From positions 1 to 57,928 of IMG/VR virus record IMGVR_UViG_3300045996_001284: a stretch of DNA of 57,928 bases; one strand, written 5' to 3'. Within the stretch, counting starts at the first letter, position 1. Each line of letters begins with the position of its first letter. The notes beneath the pieces are model-generated. The model had not been told where the DNA came from. It saw nothing but the letters and a program-made list of their open reading frames with translations, and searched no databases. Both the position numbers and the translations under genes were made by a program. The stretch is from a virus (lineage: Duplodnaviria; Caudoviricetes). This document shows positions 35,935 to 42,114 of this stretch, piece by piece.

Positions 35935-37317
35935 AGCTTCAACCTCAGCCTGTTGAGCTTCCAGTTGCATTTCCCGATCTTCTTCGGCCTGAGCCTCGCG
36001 CTCGCTAAAGGTCTCTTCATCTATAAGTGGGAGATCAGCCGCTTCACGGAGACTGTTTTCTGTCTCCAGATGGGCAGCGATGGGCACACCAGCCCCGCTG
36101 ATCTTGGCCACGAAGTTCGCGAGCGCATCGAGGTCTACCTGCGCCACCCGGCCGTGGGCCAGCTTCGGCATGAGGCGATAGTCCAGCGCGTTGAGCGCCC
36201 ACAGCCGGGGCAGCTGGTGCCGGTTGATGGTGTCCTGGATCACGTCCACGAACCAGGTGATGGCGGCGACGAACAGGTTTGACTTGTCCTTGCTGAGCGC
36301 AAACGACCCCTGCTTGCCGGCGCCCAGCAGCATGAAGTCAGCCATGCTATTTCTGAACACATCCCCAGCCAGACGCGCTATCGTCCCGTTGGTGTCGATG
36401 CTACGCGTGCCACCGGATGTGATCAGGTCCACGTCATACTGAGGCAGACTGGACGGCTTGCCGTCTGCATCGAGCCAGGGGTCGCTTGGGTAGATCAGCC
36501 CGCCCTGCTCGTTCTTTTTGAGGTCGCGGGCGATTGACTCGTACTTCGCATAGACCGCTTGGCGAGCGGCCTCCTCGGCCGGGTCGGCTTTGGCAATCAG
36601 GAGTGTCGACGGCACCTTGACCCGCGGCAGGCCCGTCAGCTCACGCTCGATGCCGACCAGTTCAATCTGTTCGACGTGGCGTCGGGCACGGAAGGCCAGG
36701 TAGGCAGAGCGCAGAGCCGAACGCCCCTCGGGGCTGCCCATCTCGCGCGCGGTCCTGAACAGCAGCCCACGCTCGATCGGGATGCGCACGCCGTCGGGCT
36801 TGCCCTCGACCTCCTGCACGAACGCCTGGACACCGCCTGTCTCATCCAGGTCCCAGCGCTTTAGCGTGAGCTGGCTGCGGCCCACCATCTTGCGAATGCC
36901 GATGCGGCCGTCGTCGAAGTCGCTGCGCAGCGCAGGGTCCGCCTGGTCTGGGCCAACGCGGCGCTTGTAGACCGTCTCCAGGAACGACCACCCGAACACC
37001 ACCATGCTCATGGCGTCGGTGATCATGTCGTCGAAGCTGTGGCTCATGTCCCGCAGGAACACGCCCTCGACGAACTCAGCCTCCTCCTGTGCGCTAGCGC
37101 TCTCGTCCGCGGGCTCAACGCTCCAGCCCACGCCCCGGCACAGCAGCTCGATGGCAGTGACGACCGCCCCGGCGACGGGATCGGTGTCGCGCATCTCGTG
37201 CAACCGCTCGCGGCCATCCTTGCCGTTCAGCTCACGAAGCGCGGTGCGGTAGATGTTGCCGCTATAGTCGGTGCGGTAGCCCGCAGAGCCGAGTTCGACG
37301 AAGGGGCTTGCTGCCAT
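35914..37317 (-). CDS. Portal protein (DUF935/gp29-like)
   Basis: 467 aa; [32 protein letters not shown]. Confidence 0.88.
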
Positions 37318-37345
37318 CCGGCGTCCAATGCATTAGGATGGCGAT

Positions 37346-37480
37346 GCGCACACGCGGTGTGGAGGGACACACCCAGCAGTAGCCGAGTGTTTCAGGCGCC
37401 GGCCTTGCCCGGAGAACGCTGGTTCGAATCCAGCCTGCTGAGAGGGGACGCCCTAGCCGGTATCAAGCCCGGCCGTGCGC
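37346..37480 (+). ncRNA. tRNA-like RNA (copy 2) containing a nested tRNA-like fold at 37374-37440
   Basis: Outer GCGCAC/GTGCGC stem, GTGT/ACAC arm, AGGG-GACG-CCCT arm, GCCGG-TATCAAGC-CCGGC arm; inner CAGCAG/CTGCTG stem, TAGCC D-arm, GCTGG-TTCGAAT-CCAGC T-arm. Confidence 0.6.
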
Positions 37481-37488
37481 GCGCCCCG

Positions 37489-37851
37489 CTAGTCCGCGGC
37501 CAGCCGCTCAGCCACCGCCTGGAGGTCTATGCCGAGCGTGCGGGCCAACTTCTGGAGCGCGAGGGCACATGCCTCCTCTTCGCGCCAGCACGTCGCATGC
37601 TTGCCGATCGCGATGCCCATCAGCGTGGGGCTGCAAGGCAGGCCGAGGAGCGCTGCCAGGATGTGGTGAGTTAGCTCGTGATCACGGGACATGCGCGCTG
37701 TGTCAGCGCCGTAGCCAAGCTCACGAGCCCGCGCCTTGTATCCATCCGTCGCCTGCGGGTACGCCGCAACCTCGCCCTCTGGGTAGACCGTAACGGTTAG
37801 CGGGTCATCGTGGAGGCGGATGTCTGCACCAGCCAGGTGGATGGTCTTCAC
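37489..37851 (-). CDS. Hypothetical protein with HExxH motif
   Basis: RDHELTHH; GTGA overlap with the methyltransferase stop. Confidence 0.6.
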   Translation of the reverse strand: MKTIHLAGADIRLHDDPLTVTVYPEGEVAAYPQATDGYKARARELGYGADTARMSRDHELTHHILAALLGLPCSPTLMGIAIGKHATCWREEEACALALQKLARTLGIDLQAVAERLAAD

Positions 37852-39662
37852 GCGGCAGCCGAGGTGAAGAGCGGGCCGACTTCACCGGGCTCTACAGCGG
37901 GCTTCTCAGCCCCGCCCAGGCGTCTCACGATGTCCTGGATGTATTCGGCCTCGCGCTCCACGAGCACAGCCTGGAAGCCCTCGGCGACCGCCGCAGCTCC
38001 AGTCGTGCCGCTGCCGGCAAACGGGTCGAGCACGGTGCCGCCGGGGGGCGTGACCATGCGGACGAGCCAGCGCATGAGGGAGAGGGGCTTTATGGTCGGA
38101 TGAGATGACCCTGCTCGATCAACCTTCCCCGCCTTCGCGCTGTAGTGGAACCGCAGCTCCTCGCGCGTGAGCGGGCAGGGCTGGAAGAAGCGGGCGGCTG
38201 AACCGCGGTCGTGATAGCTGCCCCAGCAAGTGCGGTCAGCAAACTCCCCGTAGACCGTCTGCGTCTTTGAGCTTGGGGCACTCGGACGGATGTTGCCGCC
38301 GGCCACCCGCTCCCCGAACAGGTCGAACGCCGCCAGCACTTCCTCGTCGCCTGAGTGGACTAGGTTGGCGGGCCAGCGGCCTACTGCGTTGTAGGTCGGC
38401 TGCTCATGGTCAGAGCGGAGCCCGCTCGCCTCGCCTTCTTTCCACGTCACGCGAGCGGAGCGCTGCCGCTGCACCTTGGCAGGATCGTACTCCTCGCCCA
38501 TAACAACCCTGCACCCGTCGATATTCAGCGCCCCCGTGCCCCAGCGCAGCACGTTTAAGTGGATGCTGGGCTCACTTAGAGATTTCCTCGCCAAGCAAAT
38601 CGGCTCATGGCTGGGTTTTAGGGCTCCCGAGAACCCACCGAACTCCGGCGAGAGTTTGCCGCATCTCGGGCAGCAGCCACCGTCTCGTAGTGCTCGTCCA
38701 TCCAGTGCTCCAGATGGCTCGCATAGACCTTCAGGTTGTCCAGCCGGTTGTCTGCCCGATCCAGATTGCGATGATGCACTTCCTCGCCCGGTTCCAGCGA
38801 GCGGCCTAGCATCTGCTCCGCTACCAAGATGTGTTCGCAGACGTAACCGTTCTTCCGCGCCCTCGGATGGTCCCGCTTCAGCACCATCACGTAGCCTTTG
38901 CCCGGCTCGACGTAGCGCCCGCCCTTCCAAGCCGGGTTGTTCTCTCCCGCTAGCTTCGGGTTCGGACCCCGTGGGCCATAGCTCCGATGGACTGTGTTCC
39001 GGCAAGCGCGGGAGCAGAACTTCCCCTCGTTCGTCGTCATAGTAGACGGGCGGCGGTAGATCGGCTTGTCGCAAAGGTCGCAAGTCGTGTTCGGCCGCCT
39101 GTTGGTCATCGCACTCACACCACTCAATGCCTGAGCGGTTTTTTAGCAGACCAACTTTTGCAAATCCAGTCCCATAAATCCACGCGAGCTGATCGCGGAC
39201 CTCGAACCCCGCATCCTCGATCGCGCACACCATGCGGTGGTAGGTGCGGGTGCCGCCGAACGCCACGAGATGGGCGCCGGGCTTGAGCACGCGGTAGACC
39301 TCGCGCGCCCACTCCTCGCACCAGTCTTGAAAGGCCCGCATCTGCCGGACGCGAGTGGCCTCGCGCGCCTCATCCCACTGTGGCGCGTCGCAGGTGCATG
39401 GCTTTGCACCCCGGCGCCGACCGCCACACGCTAGGCAGTTGGCATTGCGGGTGCCACCCCAGCCACCTGGCGTAGCGCGCTCACGATCGCCGAAGAGCTT
39501 TGACTTGCCGCCGAGCTGCCAGGGGGCATCCCACTCGCGCCCCATGAACTCCAGCCCATAAGGCGGGTCCGTCACCACCGCCTCGATGCTGTCCGAGTCG
39601 AGCGTCCGCAGCACGTCCAGGCAGTCGCCGTGGTGAAGCGTGGCCCCGCCGACCTGGATCAT
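37848..39662 (-). CDS. DNA methyltransferase (beta class, DPPY, probably N6-adenine) with in-frame insertion
   Basis: HGDCL, VTDPPY, RVLKPGA, ALKPSHEPI, HPTIKP, VLDPFAGSGTT; start ATG 39662 via ATGA overlap. Confidence 0.9.
   Translation of the reverse strand: MIQVGGATLHHGDCLDVLRTLDSDSIEAVVTDPPYGLEFMGREWDAPWQLGGKSKLFGDRERATPGGWGGTRNANCLACGGRRRGAKPCTCDAPQWDEAREATRVRQMRAFQDWCEEWAREVYRVLKPGAHLVAFGGTRTYHRMVCAIEDAGFEVRDQLAWIYGTGFAKVGLLKNRSGIEWCECDDQQAAEHDLRPLRQADLPPPVYYDDERGEVLLPRLPEHSPSELWPTGSEPEASGREQPGLEGRALRRAGQRLRDGAEAGPSEGAEERLRLRTHLGSGADARPLAGTGRGSASSQSGSGRQPAGQPEGLCEPSGALDGRALRDGGCCPRCGKLSPEFGGFSGALKPSHEPICLARKSLSEPSIHLNVLRWGTGALNIDGCRVVMGEEYDPAKVQRQRSARVTWKEGEASGLRSDHEQPTYNAVGRWPANLVHSGDEEVLAAFDLFGERVAGGNIRPSAPSSKTQTVYGEFADRTCWGSYHDRGSAARFFQPCPLTREELRFHYSAKAGKVDRAGSSHPTIKPLSLMRWLVRMVTPPGGTVLDPFAGSGTTGAAAVAEGFQAVLVEREAEYIQDIVRRLGGAEKPAVEPGEVGPLFTSAAA
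38618..39109 (-). CDS. HNH endonuclease nested in the +1 frame of the methyltransferase
   Basis: CDLC...FCSRAC, GENNPAWKGG, HPRA...GYVCEHILVAEQMLGRSL..GEEVHHRNLDRADNRLDNL. Confidence 0.88.
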   Translation of the reverse strand: MTNRRPNTTCDLCDKPIYRRPSTMTTNEGKFCSRACRNTVHRSYGPRGPNPKLAGENNPAWKGGRYVEPGKGYVMVLKRDHPRARKNGYVCEHILVAEQMLGRSLEPGEEVHHRNLDRADNRLDNLKVYASHLEHWMDEHYETVAAARDAANSRRSSVGSREP

Positions 39663-41173
39663 GCGACAGCCTCTGCGAACAGGGGCGCATCGCCCCGCAA
39701 CCGCTCGGCACCCATCGCGACGTAGGCGGGACTCATCTCGATGCCCACGCTGCGGCGCTGGAGACGCTCGGCCACGAGGAGCGTGGTGGAGGCCCCGGCG
39801 AACGGGTCGAGCACGGTTCCGCCGGCAGGACAGCCCGCCTTGATGCAACGCTCGGCCAGCTCGGGGGGGAAGGTTGCAAAGTGATCCGTAATTGTGGTAT
39901 CTTCCTCGCATGTACACGTGCGAGCGTTGCCATCAGCCGTTTGTCCCGAGGGATGCTTCGGCTGCTCACCAGAAGAGAAACCCTGCTCGGTTCTGCTCTC
40001 GGGACTGTGGCCGGACATGGCGCCGGAAGCAGGTTGAGGTTCACTGCCGCCAGTGTGGGCAGGTGATGCTGCGGCGACAGTCCCATGCTGCGAAGTCCCA
40101 GGAGCGAGGCCCGTTCTGCGGCTTTCGTTGCTATGCGGACTGGCAGGCGACGAACACTCGTGGAGCAGCGAACCCGAACTATCAGGCGTCCAGCCCTCGA
40201 CGAGGCTCGTCTGAATGGGAGCGGGCGCGTCTAGTGGCTCTGGATCGGGACAGGCATTGCTGCCAGGACTGCGGGCAGACTGAGAAGCGGCTTGTGGTCC
40301 ACCATATCCAGCCGTGGACGCCTCAGTCCGCCGCTCCCCATGCAGTGGGCAATCTGGTGACACTTTGCGACCGCTGCCACCGGCTGCGCCACGCAGCAGA
40401 TGAGCGCCGCTGAAAGGCTGGGTGGCGATCGTCCAGACGGAGCGGATGTTGCGGCCGGTCTGGGCGAGATGTTCGGCGGCTCGGTCGCCGAGCATCTTCA
40501 TGCCGTCGGGCCTGCCACTGTCGTAAGGGCGCTTGTTGCCAGGAGGGCTCACGCCAAGCGTTAGAGGCTCCTTCACCGCCTCCGCATCGAAGAAGTATCG
40601 CGGGCTCTTCGCGAGCAGGAACAGGTACTCATGCGCCTTGGTCGGGCGGTCGGTGACGCTCTCCGGCATCGGGTTGGGTTTCGCCCAAATGATGTCCGAG
40701 CGCAGCCACCAGCCGTCGTCTTGCAGCGCGAACGCCACGCGCCAGGGAACGCCGACGAGGTCTTTCGGCTTGAGGCCGTCCGTGGGCTTGCGCTGTCGAG
40801 CCTTACCGGCAAGCTCGGAATGCTTGCCCGTCCCGGTCCCGTATGCCGCGGCCCTACGAGCTAGGTCACCAACTCCGCAGTCATCCCGGCCGATTTTCCC
40901 GCCTGCGAAAGAGTCGCCCAGGTTCAGCCAGCACGTCCCATCCGCCCGCAGCACGCGCCGCACCTCGCGGAAGATCGCGACCAGCTTCTCGACGTACTCG
41001 CCGACCGTGGGCTCGAGGCCGAGTTGCCCGGCCACGCCGTAGTCGCGCAGGCCCCAATAGGGCGGGCTGGTGACGCAGCAGTGGACGCTGTCGGCCGGCA
41101 GCCCCACCAGCACCTCGCGGCAGTCGCCGTGCAGCAGCGTGGCCCCGCCGACCTGGATCATCCCGGAACTCAT
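39659..41173 (-). CDS. DNA methyltransferase (beta class, SPPY, probably N4-cytosine) with in-frame insertion
   Basis: VTSPPYWGLRDY, KPNPMPESVTDRPT, RSVWTI, HFATFP, VLDPFAG. Confidence 0.9.
   Translation of the reverse strand: MSSGMIQVGGATLLHGDCREVLVGLPADSVHCCVTSPPYWGLRDYGVAGQLGLEPTVGEYVEKLVAIFREVRRVLRADGTCWLNLGDSFAGGKIGRDDCGVGDLARRAAAYGTGTGKHSELAGKARQRKPTDGLKPKDLVGVPWRVAFALQDDGWWLRSDIIWAKPNPMPESVTDRPTKAHEYLFLLAKSPRYFFDAEAVKEPLTLGVSPPGNKRPYDSGRPDGMKMLGDRAAEHLAQTGRNIRSVWTIATQPFSGAHLLRGAAGGSGRKVSPDCPLHGERRTEASTAGYGGPQAASQSARSPGSNACPDPEPLDAPAPIQTSLVEGWTPDSSGSLLHECSSPASPHSNESRRTGLAPGTSQHGTVAAASPAHTGGSEPQPASGAMSGHSPESRTEQGFSSGEQPKHPSGQTADGNARTCTCEEDTTITDHFATFPPELAERCIKAGCPAGGTVLDPFAGASTTLLVAERLQRRSVGIEMSPAYVAMGAERLRGDAPLFAEAVA
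39874..39903 (+). promoter_or_regulatory. Putative sigma70 promoter for the antisense HNH (leaderless)
   Basis: TTGCAA-N18-TATCTT with extended TG; ATG follows 6 nt after the -10 box. Confidence 0.5.
39910..40413 (+). CDS. HNH endonuclease nested antisense within the methyltransferase
   Basis: Two Cys fingers, GAANPNY, W..AR..ALDRDRHCCQDCG...VHHIQP...NLVTLCDRCHRLRH. Confidence 0.88.
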   Translation: MYTCERCHQPFVPRDASAAHQKRNPARFCSRDCGRTWRRKQVEVHCRQCGQVMLRRQSHAAKSQERGPFCGFRCYADWQATNTRGAANPNYQASSPRRGSSEWERARLVALDRDRHCCQDCGQTEKRLVVHHIQPWTPQSAAPHAVGNLVTLCDRCHRLRHAADERR

Positions 41174-41385
41174 CTCTCGTATTGGGGTGGTTTCGTGATG
41201 CAGTTCTGAGACGCTGGCGTGCTTGGCCGCGTCCGCTCAGTGAGAGACTATCAAAAACGGTCGTTTGCGGGGTACGCGCTGCGTGCATAAGAGGCATGCT
41301 GAAAGAGCATTAGCGGAAGCACGCAATGCGTGGCATAACCCTTCTCACGCCAGGGCAATCAAGCCCGGCGAAAGGGAGGCCCCCG

Positions 41386-41574
41386 ATGGCCACTTCTCCT
41401 TCTCTTCCCCCCCTGCGGCGCCGCCTGCGCGGCCTGCCGGCCAGCTGCCACAAGCAGCTGTGCGGAGGCTACCTCCGCGAGGCGGAGCGGCTTCAGGGCC
41501 GCAACCCGGCCCGCGAGGCCGAGCTTCTCTCCCTGGTGGAGCGGTGGCTCCCCTACGCGGAGGCGGCGCGATGA
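41386..41574 (+). CDS. Hypothetical accessory protein
   Basis: GGGAGG RBS. Confidence 0.55.
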   Translation: MATSPSLPPLRRRLRGLPASCHKQLCGGYLREAERLQGRNPAREAELLSLVERWLPYAEAAR

Positions 41575-41786
41575 GCGCCGTTACCTTCCGCCCGGCAACG
41601 GGCGAGGGCGGCTTCGTCGAGATCGGCGTCCGTGACGCCATCTCCGGCGAGATCGTCGGCCTCATCAGCCGGCCCTGCACCGGGGCTAAATGGCTGGTGT
41701 ACGGCCGCACCGGGGTCCGGCCGGTAGCTCGGATGCGCAGCCGCAAGGCTGCCGAGGAGTTCTTCCTCAACGGGAGCGGGGCTTAG
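41571..41786 (+). CDS. Hypothetical accessory protein
   Basis: GGAGG RBS, ATGA overlap. Confidence 0.6.
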   Translation: MSAVTFRPATGEGGFVEIGVRDAISGEIVGLISRPCTGAKWLVYGRTGVRPVARMRSRKAAEEFFLNGSGA

Positions 41787-41802
41787 GCCCCGTTTTTCGT
41801 TT
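41777..41802 (+). terminator. Rho-independent terminator
   Basis: CGGGGC-TTAG-GCCCCG then TTTTTCGTTT. Confidence 0.75.
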
Positions 41803-41841
41803 GCGGGAGGCAAAAAAGTTGGCGCTCGCTGAAGAAAGCTG

Positions 41842-41895
41842 TTGACCACTAGCACGCACTGCGTATACTCAGGGCATCAGCAAGGGAGAACGCAG
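41842..41895 (+). promoter_or_regulatory. Promoter-operator-leader cassette
   Basis: TTGACC-N16-TATACT, operator ACGCACTGCGT, leader CATCAGCAAGGGAGA. Confidence 0.8.
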
Positions 41896-42114
41896 ATGAC
41901 CAGCACCGAGATGCAGAGCCTTACCACCTACGAGTGCATCGGCATGGCCGACCTAGAGCCTCACATGGTCCGCGACGAGGGCTTCCGCCGGCAGGAAATC
42001 GCGATGAAGAAGCTGGCAAAGCTCCAGAAGCAGGTTGAGGCAGCGAAGAAGGCACTGGCCGAGGCCGGCATGATCGCGGCGGCTGGCATGGCCGAGATAG
42101 CGAAGGCAGCATGA
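41896..42114 (+). CDS. Hypothetical accessory protein
   Basis: Cassette promoter and RBS. Confidence 0.7.
   Translation: MTSTEMQSLTTYECIGMADLEPHMVRDEGFRRQEIAMKKLAKLQKQVEAAKKALAEAGMIAAAGMAEIAKAA

Follow-up and report, generated by a model that had tools for sequence, protein, structure and literature searches.

How can a phage methyltransferase gene hold an endonuclease gene within its coding sequence, in another frame of the same strand, and still be readable from start to stop? The question is raised by a locus in the window, the whole 57,928-nt stretch of viral DNA analysed here (Duplodnaviria; Caudoviricetes; IMG/VR record IMGVR_UViG_3300045996_001284, positions 1 to 57,928). An HNH_3 endonuclease gene is nested there in the gene of a DNA methyltransferase, termed the host gene below. 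Selfish nuclease genes in coding genes were thought to persist only by splicing (introns, inteins) or by splitting of the gene. The answer considered probable here is an HNH_3 homing gene in a non-spliced, read-through insert of a soil phage methyltransferase, with both frames translated.

Host methyltransferase and nested HNH gene

The host gene is located at 37848..39662 on the minus strand. It lies within an open reading frame (ORF) of 37848..39917; the methyltransferase reading starts at ATG 39662 with the N-terminus MIQVGGATLHHGDC and is 604 amino acids (aa) long, insert included. PF01555 (E 1.2e-30) and phrog_67 (E 1.1e-71) are matched. The ATG overlaps the stop codon of the methyltransferase gene upstream as ATGA. 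DPPY (motif IV) is near the N-terminus, DPFAGSGTTG near the C-terminus. DPPY is N-terminal of FxGxG (motif I), which is the order of the beta class. The AlphaFold model of the host (86 homologues) matches CcrM (6pbd, E 1.3e-10) and further M.BceJIV, TTHA0409, M.PvuII and M.RsrI. By motif order and modelled fold, the host is a beta-class N6-adenine/N4-cytosine DNA methyltransferase.

The N-terminal part (aa 1-169; 39156..39662, minus) ends in YGTGFAK (aa 163-169) and aligns with insert-free homologues. Its predicted local distance difference test (pLDDT) values are mostly 81-98, with lower values of 41-66 in residues 41-70 and 161-170. The C-terminal part (37848..38636, minus) runs from GFSGALKPSHEPI via HPTIKP and DPFAGSGTTG to the stop. 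Catalytic motifs are retained in these flanking parts (exteins), and the pattern of GC content at third codon positions (GC3) is normal. With its motifs kept and a modelled fold like that of CcrM, the host enzyme looks intact.

Between the two parts lies the insert (38637..39155, minus; about aa 170-342 of the host frame), stop-free and of low complexity, with boundaries approximate within a few codons. It separates YGTGFAK from GFSGALKP (aa 343-350) by 173 codons. Homologues without insert have 10 or 50-80 residues at this site, homologues with insert 170-198. Residues 196-325 have pLDDT below 50, and most of the flanking methyltransferase core is of high confidence; the insert is thus modelled as a disordered loop, and the CcrM-like fold that carries it is intact. 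The host-frame insert matches no family in Pfam or NCBIfam (E <= 1) or in PHROGs (E <= 0.001).

The HNH_3 ORF is in frame +1 of the host, on the same strand. It comprises 163 aa from the conserved ATG 39109 (38618..39109), or 169 aa in a longer reading from TTG 39127 (38618..39127). It contains GENNPAWKGG and EHILVAE..LGR.L...EEVHHRN.D..DNRLDNL, and matches PF13392 (HNH_3; E 9.4e-10, 38.4 bits against a gathering cutoff of 24.8) and phrog_20891, "HNH endonuclease" (E 1.3e-25). The catalytic core, EHILVAE...EEVHHRNLDRADNRLDNL, is located at 38729..38833 (minus), with the Pfam match on residues 99-133 of the 169-aa ORF. The stop codon TAA (38618..38620, minus) is borrowed from the host: in GCC CTA AAA CCC, which encodes the conserved A-L-K-P, it straddles CTA and AAA, the codons of L348 and K349. 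The same L-K codons hold the HNH stop in 30 of the 63 sense-nested loci (window included), and in 17 more it is at most 30 nt away. An earlier note on this DNA had described about 170 stop-free codons of low complexity after YGTGFAK, an HNH with the above motifs in the +1 frame of the same strand, and a TAA inside the A-L-K-P codons; all three are borne out.

The HNH reading carries the marks of a used gene. H112, H113, N121, N125 and H135 are invariant in an alignment of nine HNH homologues. Substitutions between homologues peak at the third position of HNH codons, with 97, 92 and 170 at positions 1, 2 and 3 for L012-L014, and 44, 37 and 73 between the window and L005. The GC periodicity of the insert follows the HNH frame: in host-frame terms, GC goes up to 0.75-0.88 at position 1 and down to 0.33-0.42 at position 3. 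An ATG is present 4-33 codons upstream of a conserved PN..C..C finger in 48 of 48 loci. Judged by these patterns, the HNH is a functional gene under purifying selection. A scan of genome contigs with the HNH profile gave one short match, on a contig of a Bacteroidota metagenome-assembled genome, and is uninformative.

Open host frame and cysteine pair

The probability that the host frame is open by chance, P(open), was calculated exactly, keeping the HNH protein constant and letting its synonymous codons follow extein usage. For the window it is 7.2e-4, or 1.4e-3 with the HNH's own codon usage. The third frame of the insert has 10 stops, the host frame 0. As an empirical measure, 5882 segments of 169 codons were taken from 21 further long ORFs of the window; 26 of them (0.44%) have no stop in the corresponding frame.

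Relatives were collected by searches seeded with the HNH. Such searches are blind to the state of the host frame, so they carry no bias against broken methyltransferase genes. Of 13 loci on viral contigs, 8 lie inside a PF01555 gene whose own frame is open over 527-823 aa. Their GC contents are 0.29, 0.37, 0.37, 0.39, 0.48, 0.57, 0.60 and 0.64, and P(open) is 1.3e-2 to 6e-18. In the third frame, which is closed, open stretches measure 11-45 aa. The other five loci have no methyltransferase flanks, and the equivalent frame is closed (open stretches of 2-36 aa).

In metagenomes, scanned with a nine-sequence HNH alignment, the best 80 of 391 relatives were analysed. In 62 of the 80, the HNH is sense-nested and the host frame has no stop over the full length of the match; two more are sense-nested and cut by the contig end. 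Twelve are antisense-nested at the same site (L041, L050, L053, L054, L068, L080, L081, L082, L093, L096, L102 and L104), with the host frame open over 381-852 aa, three being cut by the contig end. The remaining four comprise L100, L099 and L103, the last two with an HNH and no methyltransferase, and L094, of unclear class. GC content of the 62 sense-nested loci is 0.29-0.69, and is below 0.45 in 24 of them. P(open) over the 58 that could be scored has a median of 3e-6, a maximum of 8e-3 and a minimum of 3e-17; for loci below GC 0.45 it is 1e-7 to 3e-17. No sense-nested locus has a host-frame stop inside the insert. The HNH is always in frame +1 of the host, in the nested viral loci as in the sense-nested metagenome loci.

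The host frame is therefore held open by selection, as judged from the low-GC relatives, for which an open frame by chance is negligible. The arrangement is, by the same sequence comparisons, widespread in phages. The earlier note had proposed that out-of-frame nuclease genes in methyltransferases are recurrent, having noticed different nuclease types, sites and orientations in two adjacent genes. By the domain matches these are PF13392 in sense here and PF01844 on the opposite strand in the neighbour. The observation is confirmed and the proposal supported. The note's own refuting condition, a host frame open in this genome alone, fails, given the 8 viral loci (of 13) and 62 metagenome loci (of 80) that share the open frame.

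Two loci deserve separate mention. In L083 a frameshift lies upstream, within the N-terminal part; the contig contains Ns. L058 (2125-3740; 36% GC) has host-frame TGA codons outside the insert at conserved glycine positions, e.g. in HGDC and YGSGFPK; its insert is free of all stop types in the host frame. Because the TGA codons fall on conserved glycines, the locus suggests a phage with a TGA=Gly code and not a broken gene.

The host frame also keeps a cysteine pair at the base of the loop. CxC (C182, C184; 39111..39119, minus) is directly upstream of the HNH ATG, outside HNH coding. CxxC (C331-C334, CPRCGKL; 38661..38672, minus) has its only overlap with the HNH in the C-terminal tail, which is poorly conserved; tails vary between subgroups, and the host-frame CxxC is retained. 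Both motifs are present in 46 of the 62 sense-nested metagenome loci, one in 3 (two of these cut by the contig end) and neither in 13. A further set consists of 62 cluster representatives that match the host-frame insert in a library of 1.84 billion proteins; of the 47 scorable ones, 42 have both motifs, 2 have one and 3 neither. The antisense-nested class keeps the pair as FCQC ... C..CGKP in 11 of 11 sequences covering both ends, and there the regulatory and coding constraints of the HNH fall on the opposite ends. These motifs are left unexplained by HNH coding. In the model, pLDDT of the blocks 171-190 is 82 and 74 and that of block 331-340 is 88, with 31-48 in the loop between.

The mechanism would be as follows. 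A gene of the free-standing HNH_3 type sits in the variable (target-recognition) region of a beta-class methyltransferase. Ribosomes would read the methyltransferase straight through in frame 0, and the resulting enzyme of 66 kDa would carry a loop of about 173 residues. Most of this loop would be a by-product of HNH coding, the only clear requirements on its sequence being the lack of a stop and CxC...CxxC at the base, where a zinc clasp would join its two ends. Translation of the HNH would be separate, from the internal ATG 39109 in frame +1 to the TAA in the host L-K codons. It would cut insert-free methyltransferase alleles, and repair would copy the insert in (homing). An open host frame would keep the methyltransferase usable, so that the element would cost the phage little.

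Probable mobility of the insert and rival explanations

The insert is distributed patchily. A tree of 86 methyltransferases was built from the exteins, insert columns left out. The insert, present in 30 of the 86 rows, needs at least 15 changes on this tree, and 0 of 500 shuffles were as low; at least 11 of the changes are forced by branches with a Shimodaira-Hasegawa-like approximate likelihood ratio (SH-aLRT) support >= 95. The nearest relatives of the window, P0002 and P0006, are without insert.

In the HNH tree (90 rows; many branches weakly supported), free-standing, sense, antisense and intein-borne forms interleave, with 14 state changes against a minimum of 5. Nine of the 11 antisense copies are in one well-supported clade with L094, and the other two adjoin. 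A wider clade, well supported (95*), unites all 11 with 8 sense-nested copies. Intein-like copies occur in two places, and three free-standing copies stand among the nested ones. A patchy insert with interleaved HNH forms is the pattern of a mobile gene, and would fit homing.

Free-standing homologues of the HNH are L009, L010, L013, L016, L099, L100 and L103. At L100 (2400-3591) the free-standing HNH gene directly precedes a methyltransferase gene of the same family without insert, plausibly the starting state for invasion. A further form is found in the low- to mid-GC viral loci L011 (2089-3114), L012 (1885-2913), L014 (2059-3093) and L015 (2206-3078). Here elements of 291-345 aa lie in the same methyltransferase, a few residues upstream of the window's site, with intein-like ends (YG/CL[ST][ED]DTEI ... 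VF[IV]TGN/SGFPK, slashes at the element's ends) and a homologue of the window HNH in frame +1 of the middle part. Sub-threshold intein matches were obtained for these loci (PF14890, 3.8e-4; NF038136, 1.7e-5, 0.002 and 0.046; TIGR01445, 0.015). A sequence search of the PDB with the intein-like segment of L014 gave just two chance-level WYL matches (E 0.7). These are probable intein-borne versions of the HNH. As a matter of assembly, L075/L076 and L088/L090 are each two identical copies of a nested locus on one contig, about 29.4 kb and about 39.5 kb apart, and probably reflect concatemeric assembly of phage genomes that are circular or terminally redundant.

Has the HNH ceased to be an active homing nuclease, and become a domesticated loop or a DNA-binding or nicking partner of the methyltransferase? 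The lack of a Shine-Dalgarno signal before the HNH ATG and the conservation of the loop base in the host frame are consistent with this, and other roles of phage HNH proteins are described in PMC11855218. Set against these are the purifying selection on the HNH, its intact catalytic residues, the patchy insert on the extein tree and the interleaved forms on the HNH tree, and the explanation is held to be unlikely.

Removal of the insert after all, with an open frame that serves such removal, would require an intron that escaped recognition, an intein-like reaction of an unconventional kind or ribosomal bypassing. An open frame is what an intein needs, and the homologous HNH has the same +1 relation in L011, L012, L014 and L015, with their intein-like ends and sub-threshold intein matches. 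The window insert is different. It begins with VGLLKN and finishes with PEFGGF; Cys or Ser is not found at its start, nor (H)N with Cys, Ser or Thr at its end. Hint-type motifs were not found, and intein families of Pfam and NCBIfam gave no match at E <= 1. An intein is rejected on these negatives and on the wrong junction residues. A group I or group II intron is rejected on the Rfam search, which over 37000-42000 at E <= 1 found a tRNA as the sole match; the published analysis of the related ShiLan element detected no intron either (PMC11855218). The HNH ORF takes 163-169 of the 173 insert codons and leaves a few tens of nt, so there is no space for a ribozyme core or a Hint domain. Removal is accordingly rated quite improbable, and a read-through loop is, by sequence, the most economical reading of the insert.

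The tRNA found by Rfam is at 37373-37442 (plus; 46.5 bits, E 7e-8); ARAGORN reported zero tRNAs in the whole window. Two soil DNA runs contain the phage at low depth. One contig per run skips 38556-39171, with unknown letters between. These contigs probably belong to methyltransferases of other organisms, and no weight is given to them because their likeness of 85% suggests such an origin.

That the alternative frame merely stayed open by chance in 63% GC DNA, in a methyltransferase that is dead though intact-looking, can be dismissed as exceedingly improbable. In its favour, high GC3 makes stops rare in the relevant frame, 0.44% of comparable segments of this phage are open, and P(open) is as high as 1.5-3% at the ShiLan-type loci of mycobacteriophages. 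Against it stand the low P of the window itself (7e-4 to 4e-3) and the relatives: all 8 nested viral loci and all 62 sense-nested metagenome loci keep the host frame open, and P is 1e-7 to 3e-17 for the 24 with GC below 0.45. The exteins also keep catalytic motifs and a normal GC3 pattern.

Several points weigh against a read-through homing element with a clasped loop. Methylases of this kind may be dispensable, according to the authors of the ShiLan paper (PMC11855218). Homologues from protein databases are predicted proteins, among which broken genes would be under-represented. The 86 rows of the extein tree are a subset of 121 (120 homologues and the window), picked by presence of motif anchors, and the extein and HNH trees were both quick searches. 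The Shine-Dalgarno signal before the HNH ATG is not enriched over 48 loci (median -3.05 against -3.0 kcal/mol for random positions). No RNA run is listed that contains the region. That the insert is not spliced is deduced purely from negative searches. A zinc or other metal clasp at the loop base is suggested by motif conservation and pLDDT; both motifs are absent in 13 of 62 loci, the lowest-GC ones included, hence they are not obligatory, and in the lowest-GC subgroup the putative clasp is, by this count, dispensable.

Neighbouring methyltransferase and known systems

The neighbouring methyltransferase gene (39659..41173, minus) has an insert of its own, with an HNH ORF on the opposite strand (39892-40413, plus; PF01844, E 2.5e-9). 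The two nested nucleases are independent, because HNH type and strand differ. Antisense nesting of the neighbour's type recurs in 4 of 8 loci with homologues of its HNH (L018-L021; GC 0.59-0.66), with P(open) per locus of 5e-4 to 6e-2. An analogous conserved pair, SPDCP[LIV]H ... CTC, is present in the insert of the neighbour in the window and in L018-L020. The coding starts of the two methyltransferases share about 30 identical nt (39633-39662 and 41132-41161; MIQVGGATL.HGDC), within a 78-nt repeat of 78% identity. This repeat may be a trace of recombination between the genes.

The two cysteine motif sets suggest a wider proposal, which is tentative and rather doubtful. Metal clasps (CxC...CxxC here, CxxH...CxC in the neighbour) may make a surface loop a "safe harbour" for nuclease genes. 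If so, a clasp would loop out any polypeptide, and a homing gene would fit, in another frame or on the other strand, without intron, intein or split gene. This would be a fourth, non-splicing route for selfish nuclease genes into coding sequence, and the same HNH lineage would move among clasped loops, inteins and sites of its own between genes. Eight homologues of intermediate length were inspected for an "empty clasp", a CxC...CxxC around a short loop without HNH, and none has it. For annotation, a six-frame scan is advisable for any long "methyltransferase" whose middle part is disordered. The locus offers testable details: a stop codon borrowed from the host, a conserved host-frame cysteine pair, and sense, antisense and probable intein-borne versions.

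The published system nearest to the window is the "ShiLan domain" in methylases of mycobacteriophages (Arsenault, Gosselin and Gogarten, Genes 2025, PMC11855218). It has no host-frame stop, an HNH hidden in the third frame and no detectable intron or intein, and its analysis concluded a read-through loop. The principle of an out-of-frame HNH is thus already published, and the window represents a homologous HNH at another site and in another frame. In a tblastn search against phage records, the window HNH matches these very genes, among them those of Bipolar, Mantra, MISSy and ShiLan. Identity is 41-43%, with 75% of the query covered and E of 1e-14 to 5e-17, and the matches fall under coding sequences annotated as "DNA methyltransferase". 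Both elements have a PF01555 host with alignable exteins, the same strand, a stop-free host frame, an HNH stop right at the insert's end, no detected intron or intein and a patchy distribution. They differ in site: the window insert is before G.G.ALKP, whereas that of ShiLan is after ALKPSYEPV..KP, with the motif duplicated. They differ in frame, +1 in the window and +2 ("third frame") in Bipolar, Mantra and MISSy. The window type has CxC...CxxC at the loop base, a pair not seen in the ShiLan loci; the "zinc" of the ShiLan paper refers to the HNH's own fingers. The window type extends far beyond actinophages, with GC of 0.29-0.69, whereas ShiLan loci are all of high GC; chance openness is 1e-3 to 1e-17 against 1.5-3%. 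GC content and antisense copies have no mention in the text of the ShiLan paper. Mantra gp64 (L002, 1437-3761) has, besides the ShiLan-type insert, an in-frame LAGLIDADG (LAGLIDGEGCF) near the N-terminus. In P0004 and P0020, PF00961 is combined with PF01555.

Other methylases with nuclease inserts are known. PMC11855218 (section 3.6) describes Pacc40 gp60 methylase as a second, independent out-of-frame nuclease insert. It is alike in that free-standing relatives adjoin insert-free methylases, as at L100, and it is set apart by its description, with another methylase family and another nuclease. Another methylase with an out-of-frame HNH appears in a genome announcement (PMC12613952). The methylase family is a hotspot of nuclease inserts, as papers of 2023 and 2025 had already noted. 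Inteins with antisense or out-of-frame homing endonucleases have been surveyed (bioRxiv 10.1101/2025.01.02.630785). There, too, a nuclease ORF is overprinted on a host segment that must stay open, and L011, L012, L014 and L015 resemble these inteins; the surveyed inteins splice, whereas the window insert has no splicing domain. A methylase intein with an out-of-frame HNH is not among the types given in the available part of that survey. Free-standing phage HNH_3 genes (phrog_20891; I-HmuI-like according to PMC11855218) have the same domain and the same N-terminal CxxC...CxxxC finger. They are intergenic with a closed -1 frame, whereas the window HNH is nested. A literature search for homing endonucleases and overprinting returned no paper; supplements may list further inserts, even at this site.

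Gibb and Edgell in 2007 reportedly described mobE, an HNH gene in nrdA of phage Aeh1, with both products made and the host split into two polypeptides. In the window, the host frame reads through instead.

Four points add to what these systems show. The 2025 report on mycobacteriophages proposed a read-through alternative for high-GC loci, at which an unaided open frame has, as estimated here, a chance of a few per cent. The family of the window descends to 29% GC, where an open frame of 160 codons is essentially impossible without selection; the low-GC relatives are open, therefore dual coding over about 500 nt is demonstrable. At the level of sequence, low-GC phages thus prove selective maintenance of the open host frame. 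The second point is the different site and frame, the third a candidate cysteine clasp. The fourth is that a single HNH lineage occurs around the same methyltransferase motif in four settings: sense, antisense, intein-like and free-standing.

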